Positions 35,912-61,348 of a stretch of DNA of 64,000 nt are shown here, piece by piece. The DNA lies in the NCBI GenBank assembly GCA_044892525.1, contig CM097887.1, positions 117,840,397 through 117,904,396 on the forward strand. Reading direction: 5' to 3'. The notes beneath the pieces were generated by a model. The model had not been told where the DNA came from, searched no databases, and saw nothing but the letters and a program-made list of their open reading frames with translations. Numbering within the stretch: the first letter of the stretch is position 1; each line of letters starts with the position of its first letter. The position numbers and the translations under genes are program-made. Source of the stretch: Schmidtea polychroa. Lineage: Eukaryota.

Positions 35912-35938
35912 CTGATTGGACGAAAAGTAATATATAAA
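35912..35938 (+). promoter_or_regulatory. candidate LTR promoter (inverted CCAAT plus TATA)
   Basis: CTGATTGG followed by TATATAAA at 35931-35938, after an A-rich U3-like stretch. Repeated in the 3' LTR (~62157-62183). Confidence 0.45.
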
Positions 35939-38206: not shown

Positions 38207-38968
38207 ATGCCTGCTTCAACCGCTACGAACAAGGATCTTCGTCCATGCTTCTCCTGCGCAGATAAAACCGCAGACATAGCACAACTCCACTTATATATCG
38301 GGGCACTGAAAAAGAGAATTGATCTCTATGAAGGCACGTGGTTCTCCCCGCCACAGATGAAGGAGGAGCGCAGTAAAATTCTTCGGTTGGAACATTGCCG
38401 GGACAGCCTCCTAGAGGAGAGTCGCTGTCAAAGACTGACGATCAAGGCGCAATCGGAAGCCCTCCACAAGGTCTACACGGAGGCAGAATTGGCCAAACGG
38501 GTACGAGAATTTCCCGTCTTGGAGGCCAGTAATGTTTTTCCAATTCACCACCAAAGTACTTCCACCGCTACAACCAGTTGTCTGGGGCACGGCTCCTATC
38601 TGCCGCCTGTTCCAGCACCGGCCTTATATAGTTATCAGCCGCCGGTAGGTGGTCCATCCGCCCCTATCTTGGCTCCAGTTTTAGTGACATCAGTTACAGC
38701 ACCCGATGCGGACAACCATCAACCACAGCGTAAAAGAAAACGGCCGACCCGAGCCGCCAAAAATCAAAGACGTCGAGATGCAATCGCGGCTCTTGAGGCG
38801 TCGTTATCTGTGGCTAAGTCTTCTCTGGAGAAGTTATCGTCACTACCCTCTACCCCCACCAAGGAGATATTCCGGGTGATCTCGCCCGAAGGGGTCCAGC
38901 TCGTGCGAGACCGTCGGTTACCGGTCGACATCGACGAGATGATCGCCGAAGGGGAAGTTTTCCCATAA
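38207..38968 (+). CDS. 253-aa ORF inside the LTR; N-terminal helical/coiled-coil, Pro-rich middle, basic patch (RKRKRPTR); function unknown
   Basis: Long GC-richer ORF within the inferred LTR, with a pyrimidine-rich splice acceptor upstream (TTTTCTCTATCAG, ~38034). Confidence 0.6.
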   Translation: MPASTATNKDLRPCFSCADKTADIAQLHLYIGALKKRIDLYEGTWFSPPQMKEERSKILRLEHCRDSLLEESRCQRLTIKAQSEALHKVYTEAELAKRVREFPVLEASNVFPIHHQSTSTATTSCLGHGSYLPPVPAPALYSYQPPVGGPSAPILAPVLVTSVTAPDADNHQPQRKRKRPTRAAKNQRRRDAIAALEASLSVAKSSLEKLSSLPSTPTKEIFRVISPEGVQLVRDRRLPVDIDEMIAEGEVFP

Positions 38969-39507
38969 TTGGACGTGTCGTTGACCCATCTCTCATTCCA
39001 CGCGATCAAGCTCGACAATCTCTATAAATGACTTAGATGATGCGTGTTTTGTACTCTCCTACGTGTTGTGATCGGAAATTTGTGTTCATATGTATCTTCA
39101 ATTTCATTAATATAATCATAGTGTTCGTTGTGTTGTCCTGTAAAAGTTATAGAGTGATGAGTTATGACTGGATAAATGAATTGGAATGACCATTGGAGAA
39201 TGTGGGTCGTCCCCTTGGACCAGGGTCGTACCAAGAATGCATGACGAGTATGGGTAAGACCTTCTTAGGCACCGGGGAACCTGAACTGAGAGTGGGTCCG
39301 TAGTAGTCCTAAGGCAGGGGCTCACCTGCGGATCAACTCCGACCCGTGTGAGCAGCACCAACGTGGGTAGATCATCACGGGCTCACATGAGGGAATATTT
39401 GTAAATCATGCGGGTTATGTGGGGGAAGGGCCCCGAGCTAAAAGAACATGATGCCAGCCGCACTACGTATGTCCGTTTGACTCCTCCCATATACCCAACA
39501 TGATTTT

Positions 39508-39525
39508 TGGGGGCTCAGCCGGGAT
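39508..39525 (+). promoter_or_regulatory. primer-binding site, tRNA-Pro type
   Basis: TGGGGGCTCAGCCGGGAT matches the MLV tRNA-Pro PBS TGGGGGCTCGTCCGGGAT at 16 of 18 positions and follows CCCAACA. Confidence 0.8.
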
Positions 39526-40007
39526 TACACTATCAATGCGATTTGTCGATCACCCATTATTGTGTTATGATGTGTTAGATTTAACAATTTAATTAAGGAT
39601 GATTAAAAACGGAATCGGGACCGAAACAAATCGATATTATAGTATAATAGGATGATGATACGAACTGTTTGTGTTTGAAGAGAGCATGCATGAATAAAAA
39701 CGAACCTAAATGAGTTTGAATGAAAATGAGGTTGAATGAATGTGAAAGAGTGCGATGAGAAAAGAAAACGGGAATCACTTATTTTGTTTAGTTTAATCTA
39801 GTAAATTAAAAAGAGGGATGAAAGGAAGTAATGATAATAAAAGTAAATGATTAAAGGGGAAAATATGACGAGGGAATTCCAAGGATGGAATAAAATACAA
39901 AAGTTAGAAATATTAACAATAAAAGTCAAACGAAAATTAAATACCAACCTGACAATATCATTAATAATACCCGCAAAACAAATAATAACAACACATTTTT
40001 TTTAGAT

Positions 40008-40487
40008 ATGTCGGAAGCTAGAAAACATCTACAACAACTAAGCAGATTCATCGACATAGAAAACGATTCCCTAAAGACGTTAAGAGAAAAACTGCAACAA
40101 ATAGAGACCCTAGTACAACAACGCCACGATGCACCTCTGATATCAAAACAAAATTATTTAACCAATAAACTGGGAGCAACAAACACCGATACCGACTTGT
40201 CTACCCATTACCAATGGATGCAGAAACGACTCGACGACCCCGCTCTGAACATCGAATATGTGAGAATACGCGAACAAGTAAAAACTTTGTCTCAGAGAAT
40301 ACGAACATCGATAGTAGAGAAAGCAGCGGCCTTAAGAACTTGTAACATTTGTAAGACGCGACCTGCCAAAATTCTAATTCTACCTTGTGGACACCTTAGC
40401 CATTGTGACGAATGTGCCGTCGGTTTAACGCATTGTTCTCTATGTGTATGTGTGATAAAGGAGAAGCACACGATTTACTTCAGTTAG
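40008..40487 (+). CDS. coiled-coil plus C-terminal IAP/MDM-type RING finger (no BIR domain)
   Basis: CNICKTRPAKILILPCGHLSHCDECAVGLTHCSLCVCVIKEKHTIYFS: C3HC4 RING with an IAP-like aromatic tail. T-tract plus AG acceptor 2 nt before the ATG. Confidence 0.85.
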   Translation: MSEARKHLQQLSRFIDIENDSLKTLREKLQQIETLVQQRHDAPLISKQNYLTNKLGATNTDTDLSTHYQWMQKRLDDPALNIEYVRIREQVKTLSQRIRTSIVEKAAALRTCNICKTRPAKILILPCGHLSHCDECAVGLTHCSLCVCVIKEKHTIYFS

Positions 40488-41062: not shown

Positions 41063-41398
41063 ATTAAGGTCGAGCTGCTGGAAAAGTCCAGCCGGTCAGG
41101 GAAATTAAAACTGAGCTGTGAAAAGTCCAGCCAGTTCGGAGATGATGAAGATTGAGCTGTGAATAGTGCCAGCCAGTCGTAAGATCGAGTTGTTGAATAG
41201 TCCAACCGGTCAGGGGAAGAAGATTGAGCTGTGAATAGTGCCAGCCAGTCGTAAGATCGAGTTGTTGAATAGTCCAACCGGTCAGGGGAAGAAGATTGAG
41301 CTGTGAATAGTGCCAGCCAGTCGTAAGATCGAGTTGTTGAATAGTCCAACCGGTCAGGAGAAGAAGATTGAGCTGTTGAAAAGTGCCAGCCAGTCGTA
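41063..41398. repeat. tandem repeat, 72-bp unit (two ~36-bp subunits), ~3.5 near-perfect copies plus degenerate copies
   Basis: GAAGATTGAGCTGT recurs at 41147, 41219, 41291 and 41363. Confidence 0.95.
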
Positions 41399-42782: not shown

Positions 42783-45700
42783 ATGACGAATGTGGTAAAA
42801 ACCGACGAATATAAAGAAAAATTTAGAGGCGAACCATTCAACGGGAATGCGAACAAGTTGACGACGTTCATAACAAATTTTGAAGTCTATATCGATGTGT
42901 GTGGATGGACATCAGAAGCAATTAGCAAACGGATGCCGTTGTTTTTATGTGATAGCGCATTAGAAGTGTATCTAGAAGCAAAAGAAAGAAATACGAAGTT
43001 AGACAATTGGGAAAGCATCAAAACATTTTTGAGAAAAACATTCGGAGCCAGCAAACCAATAAATCAAGCCCTAGGAGAATTAGCGAGTAGAAAACAAAGA
43101 GCAAATGAATCCATAACGTTGTATGCGAGTGAATTGCGAAGATTGGCAAAGAAGGCCATGAACGGAAACTTGCCGGAGGAAAATTTAATTGGTTATTTCA
43201 TAGAAGGACTGCGCCGAGAAGAGGTAAGGGCCTCGGTGGGATGTCAAATGTGTAAAACACTAGAGGAAGCCATAGATTGGGCCACGAGATGCGAACTCCA
43301 CCTCCCGGCACAAATGAATGTCATGCAAGAGGAAGGAAGAATCGCAACAGCAACGGTAAAAACTGAAAATGGAGAGAACAGCAATCATGAACCAAAAATG
43401 AATCAGTTTATACCCGGTGCGCATCAAATTTTCAAACCACCGCAAGGACGATCAAATGGGAATAACAGTGAACGCAACAACCCGAACAATGGGAATAATT
43501 TTAATAATCGACGAAACACGAACGATAACAAACAATGCCGAACATGCGGTAAACCAGGACATTGGGATAGAGATTGTTACCGAAACGCAAATTGCAATAG
43601 GTGTGGACGACGAGGACACACGGAAAATATATGCCAATTGAGAGGATGTTTTAACTGCGGTCAACCAGGTCATATCTCAAGAGACTGTCGAGAAAGGAGC
43701 CAACAACAACGACCACCACAACGAAATAATAACTATGCACCAAATCCGCAACGACAAAGTAATCCTAGTGAGGGAAAGCAAATGAATGTGATGCAAGAAA
43801 TTTCACAAATGAAGCAGATGATGCAACAAATGATGAGACCGAGACAAGAACCAGTAGCACAACAAACTCAGAATATACGTATGATGAGGAGCACCGAGAA
43901 TCTTAACAACTATGAAGTGCAACAACATGCACAAGAATGGCAAAGACTACAAGCTGAAGAAGAGAGGATAAAAAGAGAGCGAATTCAGCAGCGACAAGAA
44001 CAACCATTACGAATAAATATGATGAGAATGGTAAGGGAGATAAAAGAGCAATATTGTTACAATTACGGTAAAAATCCAAGAGTTGTACCTATGAGCGAAC
44101 CAGAGAAACCGAAAGAAACAATTCCAGCAACAAAAAAGGAAAATTCAACAACATCGCTAAAAGGAAATCAGAGAATTCAGAAAATATTTTGGAAAAAGAT
44201 AAAAGATAAAATCGAAAGAGAAAATGAGAAAACGAAAACAGAAGCAGAAGCAGAAAATAACGAAAATGAAAAACAGAGTAATCATCTAAATCATGATATG
44301 ATACGAGAATTAGACTCAGAGGAGCTAACGATACTCGAGAACAAAAAATTAAAGAAAGTACCAAGAATGAGAAATTTACGAATTAATATGATGAGGACAA
44401 CAAAGAAGGTGTTGTCAACAGATGACGATGAGGATTATGTGAGTAGCCTTGGTGGAGAAATGTTACAGTTAAATGAAAATATCGACCAACTCAGAGAAAA
44501 GATCGGAGCAGATGAGGATGAAAGTGAAAGCGACGTGACAAGCGAAAGCGAAGACGAGAATATCGAAATAAAATTGAGAAAAGAAAGAGAAGAAGCAATA
44601 AAACAAGTAAAGGAAATACTTCCAGTGGTGGTAAGAAACCAGGAATTCATTGACATCATACCATACAGACGCTTCACACAAAGGATAATGAAACTAGAAA
44701 GAAACGAAAAAGATCTAATACCAAACGAGGAAAAAGCGATAATAAAGAAGTATATGGAAAAAATGAAACAAGCGGAGACAACACGCTATGTAATAAAAAT
44801 CGGAACAAGCAAAGGACTCGAGAGAATATGGATAAAAAATGCAGTTACAGACGATCTTTTCGATTGGATAAGAGAACATTTGGGCAGCTCGAGAAAGAAA
44901 GAATACCTGTATCAATATCAAGGAGAACAAATCAAACCAGACATGCACCTAATAGATGCATTGATCTGGCCAGGAGAAACTCAAATATTGAAATTGCATA
45001 AAGAGAAGCAACCAGCGAATATTCACGAATGGGCTAAAGACGCCAAGGCCGAGTATGACTTTAACATCAAGCTGAAGCTGGAACAAATAAAACAATGCAC
45101 CTTGCGACGAAATCTAGATAAATTAATCAAACAAATCCAAGAACAAGTTGAAGATAACTGGGATTTGCTCATAACAAGACGAACTGCAGACATGCATGAA
45201 CTAATGAGCCGACTGCGAGATACAGAACTGCTCAGGATGAGCGATTGGAGAACCATAAATTTGATCCACAAATACGGAAGATTAAAGGAAACGCAACCGC
45301 AGAAATTAGAAATAACCATATGGTTACCAAATGAGGAGAAACGACGAATAAAGATGAGTAATCAGAGTACGGTGGATGACTTAGTAACCAAGATAAACCA
45401 AGAGATAACGGAAAAAGTACGAAGCGAGAGCAGCGATGGTATGATAGATGACGTAGTCATGATGTACGATAAAATAATACTACGGGCTGAAGACGATACC
45501 TCGTTAAGTGAAACGGGAATGTGGGATAATCATCAGATCATCAGAATATTGCCCATGGACGAATTCCGAACAAGAGATGTAACATACCAGAAAGAAATAC
45601 GAGACCGGATGAAAACGCTATACCAAAAATCAGTAGAGATAATCGAAATTTATCAACAATGGCTGAAAGAAAAAGAGCTTCAAGGAAAATTAAAGAAACT

Positions 45701-47708
45701 GAGTACCAGATCCTGCAGACGAACCCCATGGGAAAGGATGTGGAATGCGGAAAACAAAGAATGGGAAATCAGGAAAGGGATTTTCGTGGAAACAGACATT
45801 CGTGAGATAGAAAGCGAATCAGAAGAAGAGGAAGATGAACCTCCAAAATACGAAGAGGACGAAATAGAATCGACATCGAACGACGAAAGCGAAACGGATG
45901 TTACATCAGAAAGTGAAACGGAAACCAGGCATATTCATGCGATGAGAAAGAAGGAACGCGAATACGCCGACATAGACGGGGAAGAGGCAAAAGAAGCGAG
46001 AGAACGAGAAGAGAAGGAAAGGTATAAACAATTAGGTGATATCTTAGCAATGGGAGCAAAAAATCAAAAACGTCAAGTAATAACATTGGCTAACATCATC
46101 CTAAAGACATCAGAGAATATCCACAATCTAAGAGAAATGGCGAAAGCGATTGAAGAATACCGACAATATAACGAATGGTACCCAGAACAGCTAGAACAAA
46201 TTATTAGGAAATGGAGAAACCAAGAATGGGCACAAGATACCCAGGAAAGGTATCGTATCCGAGTCAAGTATCCCGACAAAAGCATTGAGGATATAGAAGT
46301 ACATCCAACAACAAAGATCAGAGAGTTAAAAAAGAAATTAGCATACGAAACTCCATTTCACCTACAACTATTCGGAAAATCGTTGGACGATAATGCAGAT
46401 GTCGGAATAACACCCATGAGATTGGGGGAGATCAATGTATTGACAATGGCAGAAACATTGGGAAAACCGATTAAAAGGAAGAGCAAATCCAGTAAACCTA
46501 CGAAAGGTAGCTTGAGTACACCAAGCCCTAACAAAGTGGCGAGTAAATCGAATGAAACCGAGGAAATCGAGGAAATTATATTGGAAGACAGCGATGAAGG
46601 AGCGGGAGAAAGATCACCAATTCTGGTAAGATGGCCGACCGGAGCCGAAATATGGACAACGAGCCAACCGTCAACTAGCTATCAACAACCACATAAACTG
46701 AACATAGAGGAAATTATCGATAATACAACAGAAACCGAAACTGACGAACAATTCCAACGACAGAAAGGACCAACGAAAGCAACACCGGAAGGCCAAACGG
46801 ACAAAATAATAGAAGAATGGAACGAATGGCTGAGAAACAACGATAGCTCATTGCCCAGAACAGATAATGAGAGAAACCCGAAGTATGAAACGACAAGAGA
46901 AGCCGGAACAATGATGGAAAAACGGGCAAAAGGAAGACCTAGGAAGCAAGGAGAAAAACCAGAATTCAAAACTAGAAAACAACTGAAACAAGAACAAGGA
47001 CAAGTCAGATTAGAGAAACTGGATAAAATAGTGTGGGATCTAAAAGAGGCCCAGCCAACAATCGAAAGAGGCGAAAAATGGATACGAGAGCTAGTAAAAG
47101 ATATGCTAATAATAACGAACACACAATTGCGACGGTTATGGCAACGAAAAGTAGCAAGCGTAGATGCCAGACAGCTATGGAATACAATATCCGGAATAAT
47201 TCCGAAATTAATCAAAGAGAAGACAAAAACCACTAAAACCGATTGGGAAGAGACAAGAAGAGTAATTGAACAATTAACTTTAAACGCAAACGACGACGAA
47301 CATCATTTAGTAGTATTAACGTATCTAATGTACAATTTGATGGGAGTAGCAGCAAGGAAAATACCTAACAAACAATTCGCAAATCATGTAGAAATGACCG
47401 TTACAATCATTGAAAATACAATCGAACCACATATTATCCGCGCCGGTGGGTGGAAAAGACTCATACAAGCACCACGAAAAAACGAGCAAGAGAGATCAAT
47501 GCAAATTCGGTTGAAGAAATTACTAAACGAGCTAGAATGGGAATTGCCATTGAAAGACCCAGCCAGCAGAAAAGCGTCGATTAATTCACTAATGATGACC
47601 ATGATGATATGGATGCTCTGCACCAGTGGAGCCGCGGGATTTACTATTTACGACTGTGACAATTCGATAATAGGAGAAAGATACTCCCTGAGAGATATAG
47701 AGGAATGA
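42783..47708 (+). CDS. gag: extended Gag: capsid, 3 CCHC knuckles, 3 ubiquitin-like domains, AT-hook, Bcl-2-like domain, env signal peptide
   Basis: Capsid-like FNGNANKLTTFITNFE...MPLFLCDSALEVY; CRTCGKPGHWDRDC, CNRCGRRGHTENIC, CFNCGQPGHISRDC; KGRPRK; RELVKDML...HIIRAGGW. Ends in the hydrophobic LMMTMMIWMLCTSGAAG followed by FTIYDC. Confidence 0.9.
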   Translation: MTNVVKTDEYKEKFRGEPFNGNANKLTTFITNFEVYIDVCGWTSEAISKRMPLFLCDSALEVYLEAKERNTKLDNWESIKTFLRKTFGASKPINQALGELASRKQRANESITLYASELRRLAKKAMNGNLPEENLIGYFIEGLRREEVRASVGCQMCKTLEEAIDWATRCELHLPAQMNVMQEEGRIATATVKTENGENSNHEPKMNQFIPGAHQIFKPPQGRSNGNNSERNNPNNGNNFNNRRNTNDNKQCRTCGKPGHWDRDCYRNANCNRCGRRGHTENICQLRGCFNCGQPGHISRDCRERSQQQRPPQRNNNYAPNPQRQSNPSEGKQMNVMQEISQMKQMMQQMMRPRQEPVAQQTQNIRMMRSTENLNNYEVQQHAQEWQRLQAEEERIKRERIQQRQEQPLRINMMRMVREIKEQYCYNYGKNPRVVPMSEPEKPKETIPATKKENSTTSLKGNQRIQKIFWKKIKDKIERENEKTKTEAEAENNENEKQSNHLNHDMIRELDSEELTILENKKLKKVPRMRNLRINMMRTTKKVLSTDDDEDYVSSLGGEMLQLNENIDQLREKIGADEDESESDVTSESEDENIEIKLRKEREEAIKQVKEILPVVVRNQEFIDIIPYRRFTQRIMKLERNEKDLIPNEEKAIIKKYMEKMKQAETTRYVIKIGTSKGLERIWIKNAVTDDLFDWIREHLGSSRKKEYLYQYQGEQIKPDMHLIDALIWPGETQILKLHKEKQPANIHEWAKDAKAEYDFNIKLKLEQIKQCTLRRNLDKLIKQIQEQVEDNWDLLITRRTADMHELMSRLRDTELLRMSDWRTINLIHKYGRLKETQPQKLEITIWLPNEEKRRIKMSNQSTVDDLVTKINQEITEKVRSESSDGMIDDVVMMYDKIILRAEDDTSLSETGMWDNHQIIRILPMDEFRTRDVTYQKEIRDRMKTLYQKSVEIIEIYQQWLKEKELQGKLKKLSTRSCRRTPWERMWNAENKEWEIRKGIFVETDIREIESESEEEEDEPPKYEEDEIESTSNDESETDVTSESETETRHIHAMRKKEREYADIDGEEAKEAREREEKERYKQLGDILAMGAKNQKRQVITLANIILKTSENIHNLREMAKAIEEYRQYNEWYPEQLEQIIRKWRNQEWAQDTQERYRIRVKYPDKSIEDIEVHPTTKIRELKKKLAYETPFHLQLFGKSLDDNADVGITPMRLGEINVLTMAETLGKPIKRKSKSSKPTKGSLSTPSPNKVASKSNETEEIEEIILEDSDEGAGERSPILVRWPTGAEIWTTSQPSTSYQQPHKLNIEEIIDNTTETETDEQFQRQKGPTKATPEGQTDKIIEEWNEWLRNNDSSLPRTDNERNPKYETTREAGTMMEKRAKGRPRKQGEKPEFKTRKQLKQEQGQVRLEKLDKIVWDLKEAQPTIERGEKWIRELVKDMLIITNTQLRRLWQRKVASVDARQLWNTISGIIPKLIKEKTKTTKTDWEETRRVIEQLTLNANDDEHHLVVLTYLMYNLMGVAARKIPNKQFANHVEMTVTIIENTIEPHIIRAGGWKRLIQAPRKNEQERSMQIRLKKLLNELEWELPLKDPASRKASINSLMMTMMIWMLCTSGAAGFTIYDCDNSIIGERYSLRDIEE

Positions 47709-49480
47709 GACAGGCATCTCCGAATAAATTAGATATAGTAAAAAAGAAAGTCTCCTATCACGTATACCAAGAATCAGATTTCATTAGAACACAAGCTAGA
47801 GAATGCGTAGTATCGAAGAAAGTGTTGGCATATTACTGTGGACAATACTCATATTCAACCCTTATATTACCGGGATTAGATAAAGAAATAGTACCTATAC
47901 AACGGGAAGACTGTAAAGAACTTTTTAGAACCGGAGCGATGAGAATCAGGGATGGAGTAACAATACACGGACAAAGCGGAATGATCAAGACGGAAAGTAT
48001 CTATGTAGCCGGACGAGTAAAATCAACTGATGGATCATGTAACGGAGGCACATATACGATCAGAGGAGAAGTGATCTCGGGAGTAGTAGTAATTGAGTCC
48101 TACACAGTGGAGTTGAAGGAATACGAAGCACAATTCGACGCAAACAACTATCAAATGAAAACCAACCCAGCATGCAGAGCTACGGAAAACGTGTGTAGAA
48201 CGGGAATTTCGACTATAATATATGAAGCTAACACCCAAAAATGCCGACTGCAATTGTTAAAAAGTGCTCTATTCAATGAAGTAAAAGGAGAAATTTACGA
48301 AAACGAGGATGACGATGAAGAGAATGGAAACGTAAGGATGCGAAATGGGAAACCAGTCCCACCATCCCCCAAAGAAAAGAGACTCACAACCCAAAAAACA
48401 CCAACGGCATTAATTACAGATGATCCAGACGTCGGCATGAGATTCATTAGAGAAAAAGAGACCACCAAATGTGACAGCATAGTATATCGGACGAACTACG
48501 CAGGTATCTACATGTCAAGGCAAGTAATAGACCGAGCAGTGGGAAAGGTAGCAACAGAGGACGTAAAATTGTACCTGTACGCTAATAACAAAATGGACTT
48601 TTTATTTCATCGAGGACAAACGACAATGCAAAAAGTGTATTACGATCTTATACAAAATGACTGTTCATTGAATAAAGAGATACTAAAAACAAAATTAGCT
48701 ATCGCAATAACACACCCAGATAACACAATGCCATCACTCCCGTTACCGGATGGACATTTTGGTAGAATGGTGGGAGAGGTAATGTATACATATGCATGTA
48801 CCAAGACATTTGCGCGACTGCCAAGAAAGCCCACAATTCCACCAGGGAAATGTGCAAACGAATTAGAAATTAGCTACAAAGGGCGGAACAGATTCGTTCA
48901 ACCAGTCACTTGAATTATGAACCCAATTGGATTTTATCCGAACATCTTTAACTGTTCAAATGCATACGGACCGTTATATGAAAAACCCGATGGGAAATGG
49001 ATAATGTTACCGGTAAAAACCGAAGTACAAGAACCTAAAAAGTTTGGATTAATAGAACTCGCAACAGAGCAAGATTTCAAACCAATTGATGTGTCAAAAG
49101 CAGGTATGTACTCACCAGAGGATTTAGAAACAGCACGACTAAACGTACTATTCCCAGCAAGGCGAGAATCCATTCTATCAAATATGGTTACCATAACTGG
49201 GGGAACGAATTTCCAGTCAGGCCCCAATTACGAACTATTATTGTCACCCGATCATTTTCAACAAGCCACGTCGAACATGATGAAAGCAATGTGGGGAAGA
49301 TTTCTAGTGTTCGGTCAAATGATGGCAGGAATATTGGGAATCATCTTAATTATTCAGATCGTCAGGGTGATATTGACTCAAATGTTAGCGTGTTTTGATA
49401 TCTATAAGAGAGAAAAGAAAGTAAATTGGAAGTTGATAGTAGGTTTTCTACCATTTTTGGCAAAAACAATGGTGTTGCAC
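47577..49480 (+). CDS. env: chuvirus-like (class III, gB-related) envelope glycoprotein, split by a 1-nt deletion (~47708) and a TGA (48911-48913)
   Basis: Signal peptide 47577-47639, then YDC...YSL.D...C, ECVVSKKVLAYYCG, GSCNGG, NDCSLNKEIL, GEVMYTYAC, CANELEI...FVQPVT(R)IM, LFPARRE, then a TM segment ~49300-49390. This Cys pattern matches Jingchuvirales G as I recall it. Confidence 0.85.
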
Positions 49481-49959
49481 GGTCATTCTAAAGACATACA
49501 TAGAATAAAACGATTAATCAAAATACTGACAAAAATAAAAGGGACTGACGAGGAGGTCGGTAGACGATTTCGGAAAACAATGTATGATGAGGCAACGAGA
49601 GCGCAACTGAAAAAGAACAAACCAAAATTCCTGGACAGATTTAGAAATCGGTCAAACAGCAGCGATAGCGATGATGACGACAACGGGAATGACAAATACC
49701 CATATCCAAGTAGAAACCCGAATGAAAAGCCAATAGAAACAGCGCCATATTGGGAGAAAGAAAAAACAAATACCTGGATAGCCAACGGAAGTTACATACC
49801 ACCGGATATCGTTGGACAACAAACAGCTTTGACCATGACACAAAATATGTATCCACAGTTACCAAGTCAACCAGGGATGAACTATATGCCAACCCGAAGA
49901 ACGAAAAGCGTAGACCAAGCGGATGACGTAAGAACGATAGCAGTGATGAGTTCACCAGG

Positions 49960-52900
49960 AGGCGCGGCAGTAACAGTCATGATCCAAATCAACGGGAAAG
50001 AGACAAGCGCAATGATAGATACCGGAGCAAATGTATCAGCAATAGCAATCAACCAAATACCCAGTAAATGTTGGAAAGACATCGAACAAACAACTATCCA
50101 TATCATCGCATGCAGTAAAGAAACCGTAGACGTAGTAGGAAGATGGTGGACTACGTTAAGATATCAAGATAACGAAATTGAAACGTATCTAGCGGTGATA
50201 CCCAAACTGAGTGAACCATGTATAATCGGAACGGATTTAATGCCGGAATTGTTCAAGGAAGTAGTAATCGATTTAACAACAATGTGTCTAAAAGACAAAA
50301 CGGGTAGAATATGCAAGATGAACGCAATAATTAGATGTCCGGAGAAAATAATTGTACCAGCAAAATCACAAATGATATGTCAAATAAAAGTGGATGCAGG
50401 AATGGAAGGAGAAGTCATTTTTGAGCCAAGCAAATCATTCGAAAAACGACGAGAATTACCATTAGCAAGAGAAATAATAACAATAAATGAAGACGGTGAA
50501 ATACCAATCAACATCACAAATTTCGAGGAAGAAGATAAAATCATATATGAAAATGAAAGATTGGGTAGATTGACACCCATGATAGACATCGAATTACCAA
50601 AAATCACCAACGAAACAACGAAAGCCGACGAATTATGGATAATTGACAGCACCCTGCTAACGGAAAAAGAAAAGGAAAGACTTCAACAATTATTGATAGA
50701 ATATAAAGATATATTCGCAATTTCGGATTTAGATTTGGGAGCATGCGACGTTACATTACACGCAATACCATTAATAGACGAAACTCCAATCGCACTACGT
50801 CCATACAAACTAGCCGAGAAGCAAAAAGAGATAGCCGAAGCAGAAGTACAAAAAATGCTAGATGCACAAGTGATCGAACCAAGTTGTTCGCCATGGCAAT
50901 TTCCAGTAGTCATGGTGAAGAAAAAAGATGGTACTCAGAGATTCTGTATCGATTATCGGAAATTAAATGCAGTAACAAAAAGAGACACATACCCGTTACC
51001 AGACATCAATGAGATGTTACTTATGTTACAGGGGGCCGCATATTTTACATCTTTAGATCTGAAAAGCGGATATTGGCAGATCAAAGTCAAGGAGGAAGAC
51101 AAAGAGAAAACAGCATTCACATTGGGTCGAGATCTATACCAATTCAGGAAAATGCCGTTCGGACTGACCAATGCCCCAGCATCATTCCAGAGATGTATGA
51201 ATTTTGTCACACATGGGATCAAGCAGTGTATGGTATATATTGATGATTTATTAATATATTCAGCAACATTCGAACAACATTTGGAAGATATCAGAAACGT
51301 GTTCGTTCGATTACGACAATGGAAATTGAAACTCAAACCATCAAAGTGTGATTGGGCAAAAGAGAAAGTTACGTTCTTAGGACACATAGTGTCAGCAAAA
51401 GGCAAAGAACCAGATCCAAGAAACATAGAAAAAATAAAAACATGTCCAGCACCAAAAAATGTCACCCAAGTTCAAGAATTTCTCGGATTATGCGGATATT
51501 ATCGAAAATTCATCAAAAACTATGCAGGTATTGCGAAACCAATACAGGACTTAGTGAAAAAGGATATTTCATTTATTTGGGGTGCAGAACAACAAAAAGC
51601 ATTTGAGACATTGCGAGATAAATTAATTGAAGCTCCGATACTAGTACATCCTGATTTCAAGAAACCGTTCTTATTGGCAACAGATGCAAGTGGATATGCA
51701 GCCGGAGCGATATTAGGACAACTGGATGAAGAGGGAAAAGAAAGAGTGATTGGATACTACAATAGAACGTTTAAAAAGCACGAGAAAAACTATTCCGTAA
51801 CCGAGAGAGAAGCGTTAGCAATCATACAAGCGATTAAACATTTTCGATATTTGTTATGGGGACACGAAATATGTATCACAACAGATCACCAACCATTAGT
51901 ATGGCTTGGTCAACACAAAGAAGCTTCAAGTAGATTGATGCGATGGGCAATGCAGTTACAAGAATATTCACCGTTCATAAAATTCAAAGCGGGAAGAGCG
52001 AATGCCAATGCGGATTGTATGTCCAGATTTATCTTTCCAGATTTAGTAGATCACGAAATGCAACGAATATGTCTGATGGTAGCAGAAGATTTAGATTTTT
52101 GCCAATTACGGAAAGACCAACAGGAGGATACAGAGTTGAAACAAATCATTGAATATGTGAAAACAGGGAAAGCAGAGGTATATGAGAAAGATCAAAAATT
52201 GAAGGAGCATATGGATAAACATCGACATCGATATATTATCGAGAAAGACTGGTTGTTGATAATGGATGGAGAAAAAAGACTGATGTGCATTCCCGAGAAT
52301 AGACGTAAAGAGCTGCTAACACAATACCATGACGGAAGACTCGGAGGACATATGTCATCTAAAAAGACGTTGGCACGAATGAAACAAAAGTATTTTTGGC
52401 CTACATTGACCGAGGATGTAACGGAATGGGTGAAAAATTGCATAACTTGCGCAACCAGAAAAAACACGGGAACAAAATGAAAGGCACCATTAAAGCCAAT
52501 GCCAGTACCAGCAGAACCAATGACCATGATATCAATGGACGTGGTCGGTCCACTACCAGAATCAGATAGAGGAAATATATATATATTGGTAATCACAGAC
52601 TATTTGACGAAATTCCCCGAAGCATTCGCTATGGCAGATCAGAAAGCAAGAACAATCGCAAAAATACTAGTAGAGGAGATATGCTGTCGATATGGAACAC
52701 CAAAACAGATATTAACTGATCAAGGAACAAATTTCATGAGCGAAATAATGAGCGAAGTCACCAACTACTTCAAGATCGCAAAATTAAGAACATCACCGTA
52801 CCATCCACAAACTAATGGTATGACGGAAAGATTCAATGGAACACTGATTCAAATGTTATCAAATTATGTCGATCGTCATCAACGCGATTGGGACGAGTAT

Positions 52901-53370
52901 ATAAAATTATGTTTAATGGCTTACAGAATGTCGATTCACGCGTCCACAAAGATGAGTCCGTTCAAGTTGATGTACGGCAGAGAATGCAATATGCCAATGG
53001 ATTTGGAGTATCAGCCACCAATATCACAGTACATGGAAATAGACGATTATGTAACCAAGTTCAAGGAAAGAATGCAGGAAATCTGGGAAACTGCAGGATT
53101 GAATATAAAATTTTATCAGGAAAGTTACAAAGATCTACATGATAGAAAGAAAAACGTCAAACAGCATACGTTTCAAACAGGCGATTGGGTGATGATCGAA
53201 ACACCAGAATTAATTCCAGGAACCACCAAAAAATTACAACGAAACGGTAAAGGTCCGTATGAGATTCTATTCATCGGAGAAACCAATGTGAGAGTACGAT
53301 TAGTAAACAATCCCTTCACGAGGCCAATATATGTAAATGTGGCACGATGTAAGCCAATACCGAAAACAGC
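49960..53370 (+). CDS. pol: pol: aspartic protease, reverse transcriptase, RNase H, integrase with GPY/F module; in-frame TGA at 52478-52480
   Basis: IDTGA (DTG at 50018); RFCIDYRKLN, YFTSLDLKSGYWQI, MPFGLTNAPASFQ, YIDD (51236); TDASG, EREALA, TDHQPL; HHCC (52328-52449); MDVVGP, TDQGTNF, NGMTERFN; GPY at 53252. Confidence 0.97.
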
Positions 53371-53439
53371 CACCAGCCAGCCGGAAGGGAGAACATTAAC
53401 AACAAGATCACAAACGTATAGAATAAATATGTTACAGCA

Positions 53440-56400
53440 GATAAACGAACCAACAGGTAACCGATTGGGGTTACAACCATCAGAAGCCGAGAAAATCATA
53501 AAAGAAGTGAAAGCTAAAATGCCCGGATGGGCAGAAGACAGATTAGATTTTGAGATATTGGGAGGTCTGCTAACAATGATCGAAAATTATGCAAACCGAG
53601 AAAGAACACACCCATTACTCAGGGTAGTAAAAAGTCAATGGCCTATATTATTTACGATCACAGACCATTATGGAGATACACCGCTGCACAAACTTTTAAA
53701 GGTCGGGAATAATGAACAAATACTGGAAACGATCGAAGCATTTCGCGATTGTAACGTTTCAACAGATCAAGAAAATAACCAAGGTTACACTCCACTAATG
53801 ATAGCAGCCAATCGGGATAAAGCTAAAGATATTATCATCGCATTACTTGAAACTGGGTCAAAGATAACTACACAAGACCACAACCAGAAAAATGCACTAC
53901 ATCATGCAATCGAAGGGAAAAGTACGGAAGCCTTCATAATCTTAGTAGACCTATTATCATATGAGGATAATAGGGAGATAGGAAACATGTATGACGGGTT
54001 ATTAACTGCAATCAAAGAGAAATTAATAACAATTACTGGAATACTAATTGCATGGAGGAACCCGATCAAAAACGATTATATGGTAGATATAAACGAAACA
54101 TTTACCAAAGGAGAAAATACCTTGATGAGGGAAGCGATGAGAGGACATCACCTATTCGAAATTCCAAATCAACTACTACAACGTGGCATAAAATTTTCAA
54201 ATCACAAAGACGAACAACTAATCAGAAAACGAATTACCAACTTCGAAAAAGCTATATCTCAATTTACCGATAAAGTACAAGTAAAATTTTGGGAAACCGT
54301 GAGTGTATTATATATGATGGAAACTATGAACAACATTCGAGAAAACTACCTAAGTATTATTCAAGTGCTTACGGCGGAAGAACGCATTAACAGTTCAAAC
54401 AAGAAAAAGATAAAAATAAAGAAAGTAAAAACAAGAGAGTCTGAGGAACAAGTCGATCAAATAATAACCGATATAGCAACAACAAGTAAACCAAAGATAA
54501 TAAACTCAGACCAGGAGATAATAATACGCAAAGCCAAAGAGGTGTTCTTTGAAGAAATGCAAGATCTATCCGATAAAGCGATACTAGCAAAAATAGCAAA
54601 AACAGTACACACCTACGCAAGAGACCAGACCACAAATCTAGACATAGAAAAAATAAAAACATTTATACCACTAGCATTCACCTTACCAACAAAAGACTCA
54701 AGAACACCATTACAACAAGCCATTTTAGCAGCAAAAGAAAACAGAGCAATAACCATCATAAGAATCCTTGGAGACTTCGGAGAAGAATCTAATGCAAAAA
54801 ATGAACAAGGAGAAACAGCAATGATGTATGCAGCCATAACAAATATACGCCCGAAAACATTACATATACTACATCGATCGGGATCAAGACTGGACGAAAT
54901 ATCAAACGAAGGAAATTCTACCATGGATTGGGCAACCATACAACCAAACTTGGAAATGATTAGGTTCATTTGTAAAAATGCTACAAGAACTGAGGTAGAA
55001 AATATCTGTAAAAACACGTCACAGTTCCAATGGAACACGATACGGATGAACTTAGAAGCCATGAAGTTATTGCTAACATGGAAAATACCGCAAAGCAATA
55101 AATATGCAATAAATATAAATGAGTTCTACGAAAACGGAGAAAATGCTATGGTTAAAAATACACTAACAAAAGGAGGAACTCCGAAAATCATAATGATCGT
55201 ATTGAACAGAGAAGACCTCAAATTCACGCAAAATCTAAACGAACAAAAGCGGACCGGAAAACATCGCCGTATACAATTGAGAGAACTGGTAAAAGAATGG
55301 AATAGAAAGAGACATGTAGCAACAGGCAGAAAGGAGTTCGAATTCGAAGCAAAATTAGCAAGGAATAGAGTGTTAACGGCATATCACAGATTATTGAACG
55401 ACATAAATGTCGAGGACGACATTTCAAACGATAGCGGGGGAGATAAAGACGACAAAGACGACGATAATAATGAACAAGGTCGAAACGGGAATGGAGAGAA
55501 AGAGAAATCAGAGGAAAATAATCAAGGAAATAACGACTCAGGTATAAAAAAGGAGGAAAATAAACCGGGAAGCCGAACAAAGGAAGAGGAAAAGACGAAT
55601 AATGGGAAACAGAGGGTATGCCCACTTTTTACCAACAAGGAAATGGAGACAAATATGATGGTAATGATACTCATACTAACAATGATAGAAATGATAACAG
55701 CCCACGGTGGAATGGGAACGATAAAAGAGGCCAAGGAAACGGAAAACAAAGACAACAAGGAGAAGGAACTAAAGCAGGAAAAGAAGAAGCAAGTACGAGA
55801 GCAACAATGGGATTTAAAAGAAGAATGGGATCTAAAAGAAAGGTGCATACTAGGAAGATGTATGTCGAGAGCATATCGGAGACTAGTATTAATAAATGAA
55901 GATACAGAACTGATAACGGAAGTAAGAATTCAAGAAGCATATCGGAATCGAGACGGGAAGAGAATAACTAAAGTCAAAGGGAAGGAGGTACACCTGAGAA
56001 AAGGAGGTGAGGTAGTGATAACGCAACTCCAGCCAAGAAAAGAACACAAAGTCTGCATTTCAAGATTAGGACCGGGTGAAGACTGTCTACAATATGTAAC
56101 ACAGCAACAACCTCCAAAAGAATACACAGTATGCATCTGGAGAAACGATACAGCGAGAGAATGTCGACGATACCCTGGGAAAAGAGGGAGGAAAAGAAAA
56201 ATCAATGACGAAAAAGATGAGCAAGGAAAACGCAAGAAAACCGATGAGAAATATCAAGACAATTATGTATCCGAGGAGGAGATGGAGAAAATACAAAGAA
56301 TGGCAAAGGAAGGTATGAACGAGGAAATAGCAAGAATACGAGGAATGATAAAAGGAAATGGCAAAGACGGTAATCTAAAAAACACGGAAGCAATATCAAC

Positions 56401-56656
56401 AATAACGAACAAGGAAAAAGCAGAAATTATAGGCGTAAAACAGATGATGTGGATCAGCGGCATAATAATAACAGGGGCCTTTTTAATCATAACGGGGGGG
56501 ACAATAAAAATAATCAAAGATAGGCGGCATCGCGGAGAACTAGAAATGGCCAGAATAAGAAATTTTCAACATCGTGTAAGACGACCAAGTAATATCAAGC
56601 AGGAACAATGGGTGGAGGCCTGGAATGCTCAGCGCCCTCCAAGCTCACGTATATAG
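53440..56656 (+). CDS. C-terminal extension of the integrase ORF: two ankyrin-repeat modules, then an internal signal peptide, an ectodomain and a TM segment
   Basis: GDTPLH, GYTPLMIAA, QKNALHHA (53670-53960); SRTPLQQA, GETAMMYAA, GNSTMDWA (54700-54975); METNMMVMILILTMIEMITAHG (55643); TM MMWISGIIITGAFLIITGG (56444). Confidence 0.8.
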
Positions 56657-56800
56657 AAAGGATTATGACTGTATATAGATTGTAAAAAGTAAGTAGACAA
56701 TATTTATTTATATAACAGTATGATATATTTTTATACAAGCGCGGTATCAATAGTATATAATGATGGGGATAATTAACATGAAAATAAAATTAGATAAGGA

Positions 56801-57184
56801 TTGAAAAGTATATATAAATTAAGAATGGAACGAATAGGCGAGGAAGTAAATCACAGTACGACAACCGAGGAGATGTGGAAACAACAATGTGCAATGTTAA
56901 CTCAAGTGATTTCGAATTTACAGGAACAAGGACTCGCTGTACAAAGAAGCTTAGTCGAAAGTTTAAATAAAGGCTTCAGTTATGTAAGAATAATCGAAGA
57001 CCAACGAATAAAAATAGAACAAATGCAGCGAGAGATAGACCGAATATCACGATACAGCCAGGTGCAAGAAGAGGAGTTAATAAGAATCGCGGAAGAGATG
57101 GAGCGAGAGGAGATAGAAGACTGGTCAGAATGGTTAACCAGCAGGGAGGAGGGCGGACAAGAGGCCGACTCCTCCAGCCAATAA
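56801..57184 (+). CDS. accessory coiled-coil ORF (likely ATG at 56825)
   Basis: Intact helical, charged ORF bounded by AT-rich spacers. Confidence 0.55.
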   Translation: MKSIYKLRMERIGEEVNHSTTTEEMWKQQCAMLTQVISNLQEQGLAVQRSLVESLNKGFSYVRIIEDQRIKIEQMQREIDRISRYSQVQEEELIRIAEEMEREEIEDWSEWLTSREEGGQEADSSSQ

Positions 57185-57273
57185 ATATAACCTAAAATAG
57201 CAATGTAAATAACTGTAAATAAAAATACGAAACTGTACCAGTAACAAATATATGTATATATATAATTATAGAA

Positions 57274-58640
57274 ATGGATAAGCAACAACGAGAGGAATTC
57301 AAAGAAATTGTTGAACAAGTCAGAAAGTCCACCACAATTCGAATACACAACCATGTAACGTGTGGAATATGCAAGAACTTATTAAGAGAACCTCACCAAA
57401 CCAGATGTGGATGCAGAATGTGCAGAGAATGTGTAGAGGAGGTAATAAAGAAGGGACCACAATGGTGCCCAGTATGCAAAGAAACAATGATAACAAGTTT
57501 GGGAGATACAAACGAAGATAAAGCAGCTGTAAAAGATATGATGAATGCAAACCTAGGATGCAAAAACACCCCATGTAATTGGCGAGGAGTGATATGGGAA
57601 GTGAGGCAACATATGGAGCAATGTGAATATAAAATCAGTCAATGCAAACGTTGCCAAGAAGAGATTAAAGTCAATGAAGAAGCAGAACATCAAAGTCGAT
57701 GCGAAGAAAGACTGGAGAAATGTGAGTATTGCGGAGAAACCGACACCTGGAAAAAACTAATCAGTCAACATCACAACATACAAGAGGAGAAAGTGTGCGC
57801 AGAATTCAGAGGAGAATGCCCCAACAAATGCGATAAACCCGGAGTAATAAAACTCGCTCAACATCTGAAAGAATGTGAAAGGAAAAAGATAAGGTGTGTG
57901 TTAGGAAAATGGGGATGTCAGAAACAATTACACCGAGGGGAATTACCCCAACACACGCGGAAATATGGTCAACGGTATTACAAGAAAACGAAAGGAAAAC
58001 CGAAAACTTAGAAAGAGAAATAGTCTCGCTAAAAGCGTTGGTAAAAGAACTATTGGAAGAAAAGGAAGCATTCGAAGAGGCGAGAACAAGCACAAAGATA
58101 CAAACAGATCTAGTAGAAACTAGCAACATTATGGTGAAAGAACTACATCAAAAAGTAAGCGAATTAAACCTCAACGAATTAATACCAACGGCTCCATACA
58201 TATGGAAGATAACGGGAGTAAAAGAGAAGATGCAGAGAGCGAGAAATGGAAAGGATACAACATTACTAAGTCCAGCATTCTACTCATGGAAAAACGGGTA
58301 TAAAATGAAAATGAAAGCATACCCCAATGGGGATGGAAGTGCATACGGAACGCATTTCTCAGTATTCTTCTTGATATGCAAGGGGCTATACGACGAGTTA
58401 ATAGAATGGCCATTCAAAGCAAAAATAGACCTCGCAATGATGAACTATCAAAGTATACATGAACAGAGTTTCCATACAGCGGGAAACCTCGTATGTTACC
58501 AAAGGCCCTTGGAAGAAGAAGGATCAGCAACCGGAGCACCGAACTTCATCCTACAGCGGAAAGTAGAAGACATGACGAAAAACGACACCATATACATAAA
58601 AATAGCGGTGAGGCGAGACGGGAAGAGTAGGACTGAGTAG
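57274..58640 (+). CDS. TRAF: intronless TRAF homolog (RING, TRAF zinc fingers, coiled coil, MATH), frameshifted at ~57950
   Basis: CGICKNLLREPHQTRCGCRMCRECV...CPVC; CKNTPCNWRG...HMEQC; CPNKC; YIWKI...SPAFYS..GYKMKMKAYPNGDG...THFSVFF...YDELIEWPF. The two ORFs join at a CA-repeat slip. Confidence 0.92.
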
Positions 58641-58816
58641 AGAGACGAATAATTTTGTATATATTAAATTGTAAATATCGGTGAATATACCCAGTAAAAT
58701 ATTATATAGTAGTGTAGAAAACCCCAAATATGTTAAGAATAAACTTAAACGGAAAAATTCTAAAAACAACCCACCGATAACGAATTATAAACAATGAATA
58801 AATAACGAATATAAAA

Positions 58817-59893
58817 ATGCGACGTCAAGTTAATAATATCATTGTTCAGATCAAGATGACACAAGAAGGAACTGAAGCCCCAAACCACGAAACCAAAGTC
58901 AATAAAATCCATAAGGGAAAATGGGTCAAAGTAATGTTACAATTGACGAACCAGACCCGCAACCACCTCGAAGAGGCCAGGGAATACGAGAATAACAAAT
59001 ATCAGTGGTTAGTAAACAATTTAAGAGCCGAAGCAGAAGCATGCAAAAGAGCCTCTAAGTGGGCATCATTGGAAAACACTCGCCAAGAAGCGCACAGCCA
59101 CTATTTAAAACAGTTAGTGCAGGAAGCACGGAAACGATTGACGGACGAAAACACAAAACGAGAAGCAGAAAAACAAAAGGAAGGAAGGAAAATGAATCAC
59201 CTATTGGCAGAAGCCCGAAACTGGAAGCGACAGAACAAAGAGATGAAAAAAGAAATGAAAGAATTGCCTATGAGATTAGAATACGAAAGCGAACAAGGCA
59301 AATGGGAGGAAAATCTGGTCATAAGAGAAGAACTGAAACGGCTCAGAAAGATTGCGGCCCGAAGCCAAACATGGCAGACCAAAGCCATGGAATTTGAAAG
59401 ACATCTAGCCATGAAAATCTCCATAAGGGAGCACGAGAATGCCGCAATGGAAGAACTGATACTTCAACAGTCAGAACGACTCGTGGAACTGGTAAATAAG
59501 GTCGCAGAACTAGAACGAGATGTCAACGGATACCAAGGAGCTCTGGAGCAGAGAAATATGGTACTGGCGGGGAAAAACAAAAAGTTAGAAAACGAAAGGA
59601 AAATGTATAACGAAAATCTCAAAAATCTGGAGATAGAGATCAAGAAATGGGAAAACGGCGAAAAAGCGGAAGAGCTAGAAAAACAGATAGAGGTAAGAGA
59701 CGATGAAACCAGGTATCTAACATACCTGTTGGACGAGGAACTTAACGTGTCAAGAGCACTAAGAGACGAAGTGCAAGAACTTAGAGCGCAGATTCCCCGG
59801 TACTACATCCCATTTGATCCCATCGCACTCCAATTACAAACGTCAGTAGAAAGCGATGAGGGATATGTAGGCCAGGAAGAGACCTTTGTATAA
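58817..59893 (+). CDS. accessory 358-aa coiled-coil protein
   Basis: Long intact ORF with continuous E/K/R/L heptad-like composition. No family recognised. Confidence 0.7.
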   Translation: MRRQVNNIIVQIKMTQEGTEAPNHETKVNKIHKGKWVKVMLQLTNQTRNHLEEAREYENNKYQWLVNNLRAEAEACKRASKWASLENTRQEAHSHYLKQLVQEARKRLTDENTKREAEKQKEGRKMNHLLAEARNWKRQNKEMKKEMKELPMRLEYESEQGKWEENLVIREELKRLRKIAARSQTWQTKAMEFERHLAMKISIREHENAAMEELILQQSERLVELVNKVAELERDVNGYQGALEQRNMVLAGKNKKLENERKMYNENLKNLEIEIKKWENGEKAEELEKQIEVRDDETRYLTYLLDEELNVSRALRDEVQELRAQIPRYYIPFDPIALQLQTSVESDEGYVGQEETFV

Positions 59894-60066
59894 AGATAAA
59901 GGGAAAGATAAAAAATATAAAAATCGGGACCTGTATCCCAACCAAAAAATTAATGGTACAGTAAAAGTATGAAAGGGACTGTAACCCTGATTATAAAATA
60001 ACATATAAATGTATAAGTATAAGCCGCACTGTAGCGCAATTATTAATTACGTATATATTATAGAAA

Positions 60067-60768
60067 ATGAACAGTGAAAACGGACAACCCATCATAATAT
60101 CTATAATCGAGTTAGAAGAGGGAGAAATTGAAGTTGATGAAGTGGAGAGGAAGAAAACTATCAAGGAAGAATTACAAGAAGAGAGACAGGAAAACGAAAG
60201 ATTAGTAGAAAAGTGGAGGGATAATCGAAAAATGATTAAAGTATTGAAAAGAGAATACACCTTGCTAGAAGAAGTAAAGAAAGAAGTGGAGGAAGAAAAT
60301 GAATGGCTTCACGAGCAAGGAAAGCGAGGGAGAAATTGGGAAAAGATCGCGGAAGAATTATGGCAGGAGAGGGCCAGTCGAAAGGCCGACGAAGTGATTA
60401 GTGACTATTGGAAAACCGAGGCACGGAAACACCAAGAAAGCCTGAAAGAGTTACAACTCCAACTACACCAAAAACAGAAAGAATGTGAGATAATGAGACG
60501 AATGAACAACAAATACCAGGAAATAGACAACGAAGAAGACGGGGAAAGGGAAAATGATTTTCTACAGATAATGAACCATAAAAACCTCGAAAGAGCAACA
60601 CAAGAAATAAAAGCACTAAAAGAAAAAATAATAACCCTAGAGCAACAGTTAGACGAAAGAGACAAACAATTAAAAGTACTACCCGAATTGAGAAAACGAG
60701 TAATAAAAGCAGAAACGAGAGTGATGAGAACATCCGAGAAAACCCGTAAAAAGAAAACCCGGCAATAA
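60067..60768 (+). CDS. accessory 233-aa coiled-coil protein
   Basis: Intact charged helical ORF. TTATAG acceptor-like site 3 nt before the ATG. Confidence 0.7.
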   Translation: MNSENGQPIIISIIELEEGEIEVDEVERKKTIKEELQEERQENERLVEKWRDNRKMIKVLKREYTLLEEVKKEVEEENEWLHEQGKRGRNWEKIAEELWQERASRKADEVISDYWKTEARKHQESLKELQLQLHQKQKECEIMRRMNNKYQEIDNEEDGERENDFLQIMNHKNLERATQEIKALKEKIITLEQQLDERDKQLKVLPELRKRVIKAETRVMRTSEKTRKKKTRQ

Positions 60769-60823
60769 TTAAAGATGAATGATCAATGTAAATAATTGTA
60801 AATAAAAATTTTCGTATAGTAGT

Positions 60824-61348
60824 ATGTGGTTCGGAGCAACCCTGGTGACAATAATGATGATAGCGATAAACGGAGTACCCATGTGGCAGCCAATCCCAAC
60901 ACTCTGGGAGAATCCCGAGAAACAGCAAAACCCGTTAACCAAACTGAAAAGCGAAAGAAAGCTCTCCAACAACATCCCGAAACAATGCTGGAACAAAGCC
61001 GTCTGGAAAAAACTTCAAATGCAACTCCACCTACAAACCCAAAAAATCGAACAGCTCGAAATTCTCTTACAAGAACAAACCACCCAACAATCCTTGAAGG
61101 AAATCATCGTGAAGAAGGAAGTAAAAGAAAGTCAAGTCCTACTCTATGCTACCATCAGTGAAACCCTTATCATCTGCGCACTAGTCATCTGGAAAGCGTA
61201 TGATATTCATCGAACATGGAGAAGAAACCAGTCACTATCCGAGAAACACGAAAGAAAGAACCCACGACCGAAAAATAAACATAAACGAGCAGTACATTTT
61301 CAACAACCAAGCCCACCCGACCAAATGCAACAAAAATCTATCCCCTGA
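60824..61348 (+). CDS. accessory type I membrane protein (signal peptide, coiled coil, TM, basic tail)
   Basis: MWFGATLVTIMMIAING; VLLYATISETLIICALVIW; tail RKNPRPKNKHKR. Confidence 0.6.
   Translation: MWFGATLVTIMMIAINGVPMWQPIPTLWENPEKQQNPLTKLKSERKLSNNIPKQCWNKAVWKKLQMQLHLQTQKIEQLEILLQEQTTQQSLKEIIVKKEVKESQVLLYATISETLIICALVIWKAYDIHRTWRRNQSLSEKHERKNPRPKNKHKRAVHFQQPSPPDQMQQKSIP

Follow-up and report, generated by a model that had tools for sequence, protein, structure and literature searches.

A recent, damaged copy of a giant and most probably Burro-type Ty3/gypsy retroelement in Schmidtea polychroa, from a family with Gag, Env and Pol in one reading frame

Relation to described giant retroelements

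The planarian Burro/GYPSM1 elements, published in 2019, carry env in frame between gag and pol and have a giant ORF1 of 4,873 and 5,140 aa, and a dUTPase-like motif was found in them with HHpred (PMC6431247). BURRO1 is transcribed on PIWI loss (PMC8532177). GAG-ENV-POL elements with a gB-type env have been described from flatworms, nematodes and bryozoans (PMC13524379, 2026), and there are BEL/Pao elements that carry Monjiviricetes-type glycoproteins (PMC7642597). The locus reported here was originally predicted on the premise that its gene order is unprecedented; its env-between-gag-and-pol layout is real but was already known for flatworm elements by 2019 (PMC6431247), and it does not form a new category.

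The window, the whole stretch of 64,000 nucleotides of S. polychroa DNA that was analyzed, most probably carries a giant Ty3/gypsy LTR retroelement of the Burro type, in a recent and damaged copy. Its family has one frame of 4,624 residues, whose product is likely cut co-translationally by host signal peptidase and later by the element's own protease. The element measures 30,345 bp, has LTRs of 4,055 bp that both start with TGTTGGG and end with CCCAACA, and is flanked on both sides by a 4-bp target duplication, GTTG. Between the 5' and 3' LTRs there are 1 mismatch and 50 gap positions, so either the insertion is very young or the LTRs have been homogenised. The features outside the giant frame are:

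35446..39500, + strand: 5' LTR, 4,055 bp, TGTTGGG...CCCAACA, with GTTG just before it
38207..38968, + strand: 253-codon ORF within the LTR, no Pfam match
39507..39526, + strand: candidate primer-binding site directly behind the LTR
39894..40487, + strand: accessory ORF with a C-terminal RING finger (zf-C3HC4_3, E 4e-8)
41144..41376, + strand: 72-bp tandem repeat in the leader
56798..61348, + strand: span with four further accessory ORFs (56798, 58802, 60064, 60806), no Pfam match over cut-off
57223..58640, + strand: accessory RING-TRAF-MATH gene, frame-broken in the window and a single 480-codon ORF in 20 of 29 other copies
61692..64000, + strand: 3' LTR, running ~1.8 kb past the window end and followed there by GTTG

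We take the primer-binding site to resemble tRNA-Pro; one exact pattern search for the corresponding tRNA gene gave no match. Three of the four accessory ORFs in the 56798..61348 span are coiled-coil-like, and one has a signal and an anchor. Within the giant frame the following parts were recognized:

42783..43730, + strand: Gag (Retrotrans_gag, E 9e-10), with three CCHC knuckles by reading, two of them scored by Pfam
43731..46790, + strand: long, charged spacer; one or two ubiquitin-like matches, weak and below cut-off (E 0.01-0.06)
47010..47570, + strand: Bcl-2-like domain, below the Pfam cut-off (E 0.037), with E 6e-5 for its counterpart in a sister family
47577..47639, + strand: internal signal sequence (predicted), whose -3 and -1 residues are small
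47640..49290, + strand: Env ectodomain, PF24664, broken in the window copy near 47700 (frame) and at 48911 (stop)
49301..49378, + strand: predicted Env transmembrane anchor
49421..49950, + strand: weakly hydrophobic second segment (predicted non-spanning) and linker with a YPxL motif
49976..50251, + strand: aspartic protease (RVP, E 4e-8)
50915..51967, + strand: reverse transcriptase (RVT_1) and RNase H (Pfam)
52289..53400, + strand: integrase, H2C2 finger and rve core, split by the 52478 stop in the window copy
53600..55300, + strand: ankyrin-repeat region (Ank_2, E 1e-19)
55643..56656, + strand: predicted second type I membrane protein, with a signal, a Cys-containing ectodomain of ~250 aa, an anchor near 56459 and a basic tail

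The element resembles Burro/GYPSM1 in its size of >30 kb, its long LTRs, its one giant ORF1 (4,624 aa here), its accessory ORFs and tandem repeats, its Gag with CCHC knuckles, its PR-RT-RH-IN and ankyrins, its Bcl-2-like part, a weak match here, and its env, which stands in frame before PR and matches mononegavirus-type fusion glycoproteins (PMC6431247). A Ubl-like part ahead of the Bcl-2-like one may be shared as well: the ubiquitin, RA_2 and UBX matches of the window have E values of 0.01-0.2, below cut-offs, and a sister family reaches E 2e-4. Unlike Burro/GYPSM1 as described in that account, the element has its MATH-TRAF part in a separate downstream ORF (MATH match E 1e-25), not inside or upstream of ORF1, and the ORFs scanned here gave no Pfam match to BIR or dUTPase-like motifs, Pfam being less sensitive than HHpred. 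The placement as Burro-type, a probable one, is based on the published description of these elements.

With the GAG-ENV-POL errantiviruses of the HSV/gB type the element shares the GAG-ENV-POL order, a Ty3/gypsy pol (PR-RT-RH-IN), a homologous env, multiple near-identical copies, and an ectodomain that has an anchor on one side and a signal or helix on the other (PMC13524379). The nearest of them is Smed_errantivirus_5, whose env our env matches at ~50 of the first 100 aligned residues as counted by eye, and the env described here belongs to a clearly different family from the six Smed rows of that paper. The main text of PMC13524379 uses the terms "polyprotein", "single ORF", "fibronectin" and "cytoplasmic" 0 times, and its Smed elements are given without a listed LTR or primer. 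Similarly, the Burro/GYPSM1 account (PMC6431247) mentions neither a signal/anchor topology nor a second membrane protein. Only the second membrane protein, the late-domain-like motif and the argument on topology leave room for novelty; none of the three was found in the literature searched (Grohme 2018, whose supplement may describe Burro membrane segments, lies outside it). What the locus adds is a young, high-copy giant family, strong purifying selection on env, and comparative support for the making of such a chain.

The reading frame in the window and in sister copies

In the window, the giant frame is divided among four long + strand ORFs (42456-47708, 47660-48913, 48914-52480 and 52481-56656). 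ATGs lie at 42783, 47705, 48917 and 52499; TGA is the stop codon at 47706, 48911 and 52478, and TAG the last one, at 56654. The last three ORFs have a common frame and the gag ORF lies in another, and the start and stop coordinates and shared frame given in the original prediction proved exact. The stop at 48911 falls inside the Monjiviricetes fusion glycoprotein domain (PF24664), which has Pfam matches on either side of it (E 6e-38 and 1e-21), and the stop at 52478 splits the integrase, with the zinc finger before it and the core after it (Pfam). The frame break near 47700 lies ~20 codons into mature env, behind the signal, and a fourth break is found in the RING-TRAF-MATH gene. The window copy itself is defective.

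A search of the genome (781 Mb) with positions 47400-49600 as the query yielded 628 first-look candidates; scores were obtained for 40, all with 97-100% identity. We used 29 of the 39 best other matches, together with two further overlapping stretches per copy; since these copies were picked by their likeness to the window and include near-identical groups, they represent fewer than 29 independent events. When they were examined across the break sites, as had been suggested with the original prediction, the stops and the frameshift were absent from all 29, each of the three sites being crossed by an open frame in every copy. In nine of the 29 a single frame stays open from 42783 through to the common stop at 56656, as judged from the three overlapping stretches, with 4,725-4,812 stop-to-stop codons. 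The commonest stop-to-stop length, 4,734 codons, is equivalent to a protein of 4,624 residues that starts with the ATG at 42783, the same length that had been predicted for the repaired window copy. The predicted rejoining of the four ORFs, and their order gag-env-PR-RT-RH-IN-ANK-membrane protein, thus describe a single reading frame of the family. The remaining 20 copies have stops or frame breaks of their own at scattered places elsewhere. By a looser test a tenth copy also counts as open, yet it stops early, after 3,990 codons. The contigs of all four public runs compared have an extra base near 47707, in line with the sister copies.

Readthrough or frameshifting between gag and pol is common in retroelements, and the frame break is close to the gag/env border, as might be expected if the breaks were programmed recoding that sets the Gag:Env:Pol ratio, or if the ORFs were separate genes. 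We give this explanation practically no credence, based on the fact that the 29 other copies have no break at any of the three sites, that two of the breaks are inside Pfam domains (env and integrase), that the frame break falls within mature env, past the signal, and that the window copy has its fourth break in a different gene. Because all 29 other copies are open at each break, recoding is excluded for the family of the window element, and programmed recoding at these sites was rejected. All three breaks are private to the window copy and are damage, not recoding.

It is unlikely, too, that some of the window breaks are assembly errors and that the locus is less damaged than it looks. Four breaks are many for the very young insertion implied by an LTR pair with only 1 mismatch, and one-base losses are typical of long-read data; however, 20 of the 29 other copies have scattered breaks too, the window copy is 1.1-1.4% from its nearest sisters, which shows real divergence, and trans-copying from an already damaged template, or LTR homogenisation, accounts for the pattern. 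The architecture of the element is the same whether or not there are assembly errors.

Values of dN/dS were obtained pairwise among the 29 copies from pairs with pS >0.05 (202-385 of the 406), which are not independent and whose choice biases the ratio down. Gag had a value of 0.04 and the spacer 0.11; the Bcl-2-like domain and the env ectodomain both had 0.02, the anchor and linker 0.03, PR, RT-RH and IN 0.00-0.02, ANK 0.10 and the last membrane protein 0.17. Every part of the giant frame is under purifying selection (dN/dS 0.00-0.17), and the constraint on env equals that on RT.

Env relatives and predicted topology

A full HMMER search in which env was the query gave 984 proteins at E 0.001, of which 150 were listed. 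The best relatives among the matches listed are long chains of 750-3,240 aa with 29-47% identity, and in 10 of the 13 long relatives scanned an aspartic protease follows env in the same chain, five of these 10 having RT as well. Glycoproteins of ~650 aa come below the long chains. The longer env relatives found by HMMER had been missed by a word-index search of 4,416 candidates. In the genome of S. polychroa, two other families have Gag, the Bcl-2-like domain, env and pol in the same order. In a quick tree, 15 polyprotein envs were separated from 31 other glycoproteins by a branch with 100% SH-aLRT, the tree containing 15 polyprotein rows, 30 of the 76 stand-alone ones and 1 other, all picked for their similarity to the query, so that a single origin is not established thereby.

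By family assignment, env is expected to be a class III-type fusogen; a PDB sequence search with it gave only two chance matches. Stand-alone glycoproteins of the Monjiviricetes type (PF24664; chu-, nyami- and xinmovirus-like) have a homologous ectodomain, with 21-29% identity over matched stretches, and also share a signal before xYDC, an anchor, a post-anchor segment and a YP-type tail motif. They differ in being separate proteins of ~650 aa, or in standing after the integrase (P0071), whereas the env described here is embedded in a Gag-Pol chain.

The four hydrophobic segments named in the original prediction are all present, with hydropathy peaks at 47592, 49319, 55658 and 56459. The first signal of the window is moderately hydrophobic only (19-mer KD 1.4). 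Behind a hydrophobic core, 15 of 16 relatives have small residues at -3/-1, three residues ahead of a conserved [YF]DC, a pattern that resembles a signal-peptidase site. Insertion scores were calculated with a biological hydrophobicity scale in a crude form, summed without position terms. For 14 polyproteins (P0016, which is without the anchor pattern, was left out), the median score was 0.7 for the anchor (range -2.1 to 3.2) versus 6.4 for the second segment at 49421 (5.2-8.1 in 13 and 15.1 in one).

The second segment is kept in all 15 polyproteins shown, and its motif also occurs in 43 of 76 stand-alone glycoproteins, from which we conclude that it was inherited with the glycoprotein. If it spanned the membrane, the full-length product would have Pol on the lumenal side, and functional Pol would need a different start. 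Its conservation might be taken to favor such a role, and marginal helices may escape a crude scale, but we consider it very unlikely given its scores relative to those of the anchor, its central Pro and flanking basic residues, and the fact that in stand-alone glycoproteins the tails behind it are rich in YPxL and P[TS]AP, motifs that act in the cytosol. The post-anchor segment is thus predicted to be too polar to span the membrane, and the crossing of the membrane at 49421 that would undo the original prediction is not indicated by this crude scale. A topology of two signals and two anchors, with cytosolic Gag and Pol, is the most likely reading, as predicted.

Viral late domains act in the cytosol, and the linker has YP(x)L-type motifs that resemble them. 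Tail bounds could be set for 11 of 13 polyproteins, the other two being dropped; of these 11, 10 have [LIVMH]YP in the stretch from anchor to protease (shuffles give 1.05) and seven have YPx(1-3)L there (0.93 expected). The corresponding counts in the tails of stand-alone glycoproteins are 44/76 and 24/76 (3.7 expected for each), and P[TS]AP is found in 14/76 versus 0.6 expected. The motifs were chosen after the sequences were seen. Env has only one N-glycosylation sequon, which speaks against a lumenal role, and the second ectodomain likewise has one; both numbers are low for lumenal domains.

Proposed expression and the predicted second membrane protein

Polyproteins of alphaviruses and flaviviruses have alternating internal signals and stop-transfer anchors and are cut by host signal peptidase and a viral protease. 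The chain described here would work alike but has no homology to them; the window element is an LTR retroelement. Gag and its Ubl-like and Bcl-2-like cargo would be cytosolic products. Next, the Env ectodomain would be directed into the ER by the internal signal at 47577, itself cleaved co-translationally after the -1 residue by host signal peptidase, and transfer would be stopped by the anchor at ~49300. The short hydrophobic segment after the anchor would stay at the cytosolic leaflet, on its surface or within it, and not cross, and PR-RT-RH-IN-ANK would be made as the cytoplasmic tail of Env. The second signal (55643) and anchor (56459) would display the second type I membrane protein, budding would proceed through ALIX/ESCRT recruited by YPxL in the tail of Env, and the enzymes would be released by the element's own protease. 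We infer the cleavage, topology, budding and particles from sequence.

Because the frame is single, Gag, Env and Pol would be made in equal amounts unless splicing or degradation intervenes. It may be asked whether the whole polyprotein is made only rarely, splicing yielding Gag-only, Env or Gag-Pol messages and the topology being solved at the RNA level. The single frame leaves the stoichiometry unexplained, and acceptor-like AG sites ahead of several accessory ORFs make subgenomic RNAs probable; nevertheless, we regard splicing of the giant frame as quite improbable, based on the fact that the signal, the anchor and the linker motif are conserved in exactly the arrangement that the whole chain needs. 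In contigs of seven runs over 42000-57000 and 56300-64000, none of the 15 joints listed for each span, out of 20 and 18 respectively, was of the GT..AG kind; contigs cannot show absence, and the result counts neither for nor against splicing.

If the predicted topology is true, the enzymes would be packaged as the tail of an envelope protein, there would be a second surface protein in addition, and the arrangement would bear on cell-to-cell spread of envelope-carrying retroelements in animals with adult stem cells. A broader and tentative reading, which we consider possible rather than probable, is that Burro-type elements are enveloped retroviruses that make in one chain a Gag-Bcl-2 part tethered to the membrane via the cleaved signal, a Pol-tailed class III fusogen with an ALIX-type late domain, and a second surface protein. 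In the same tentative reading, the late domain would be inherited from a negative-strand RNA virus glycoprotein, the fast-evolving second surface protein would serve attachment or as an immune decoy, and Pol would be packaged through Env, not through a Gag-Pol fusion. No description of Pol packaging through Env was found in the literature searched.

A search of 2,056 candidates 193-615 aa long, at E 0.01, gave no homologue of the second membrane protein, which also had no usable Atlas match, no BLAST match among the proteins compared, and no Pfam family, including fn3. The idea of an FN3 fold for its ectodomain comes down to a short L-x-P-x3-[YH] motif, and single-sequence folds were too poor to use (pLDDT 44 for the window protein and 31 for that of a sister family). 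A second signal/anchor pair ends the frame in P0005, P0009 and P0016 and in two sister families, and the window protein has 15-21% identity to its sister-family counterparts.

Near-identical LTRs and possible tandem copies of the main element

The LTRs of the main element, a damaged Burro-type copy (35446-39500 and from 61692 onward), differ by a single mismatch, and the 3' LTR also carries a duplicated stretch of about 46 bp. Despite this near identity, the copy carries at least four inactivating breaks, a combination that suggests that the copy was made in trans from a template already damaged, that its LTRs were homogenised, or that the assembly contains errors. Elsewhere in the genome, pairs of copies of this family lie 26.4 kb apart (G000:C2:107337179 and 107363591; G000:C1:72655518 and 72681911). 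As this spacing equals one LTR plus the internal region, it suggests that these pairs are tandem arrays with a common LTR.

Upstream and accessory reading frames

The small ORF upstream of gag (42073-42455) is in the gag frame in three of the 29 other genomic copies examined, giving a stretch of 1,523 codons, and is separate in the rest. Several accessory ORFs on the same strand are preceded by pyrimidine-rich AG sites resembling splice acceptors (38200, 40000, 57270, 60060, and 60810), which suggests that these ORFs are expressed via cis- or trans-splicing. No joint of this kind was among those listed for the contigs, which provides no evidence either way.

Related families and database proteins

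A third-family copy on the minus strand (L126:7377-9998) has a single frame running from env through a protease to the second signal/anchor protein and lacks RT, RNase H and integrase; another copy of the same family, at locus L123, has all three. The L126 copy may be a non-autonomous form that retains both membrane proteins. In a sister family, the second membrane protein (L121:2751-3890) has FN3-like motifs within its ectodomain and a PPxY motif in its short terminal tail.

Among the database relatives of the main element's env, several polyproteins (P0005, P0006, P0007, and P0020) have two aspartic-protease-like stretches downstream of env. P0009, an env-PR-RT-IN-membrane polyprotein, is labeled at source as a Flavobacteriaceae hypothetical protein and probably represents animal DNA inside a metagenome bin. 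In P0111 (1,000 aa), immunoglobulin domains are joined to a Monjiviricetes-type glycoprotein, which may be a true fusion or a gene-calling artefact.

A second env relic and flanking repeats

Another env relic lies within the window (18631-19452; PF24664 match, E 5e-38), having 39% identity with the env of a sister family and 35% with that of the main element's family. An additional ORF lies beyond it:

20621-21076, FLYWCH-finger ORF, 1.2 kb beyond the env relic

The AT-rich flank contains short dispersed repeats (59-93 bp), which are probably fragments of other transposons:

6616-7059, short dispersed repeats
9027-9574, short dispersed repeats
20049-20155, short dispersed repeats
29363-30148, short dispersed repeats
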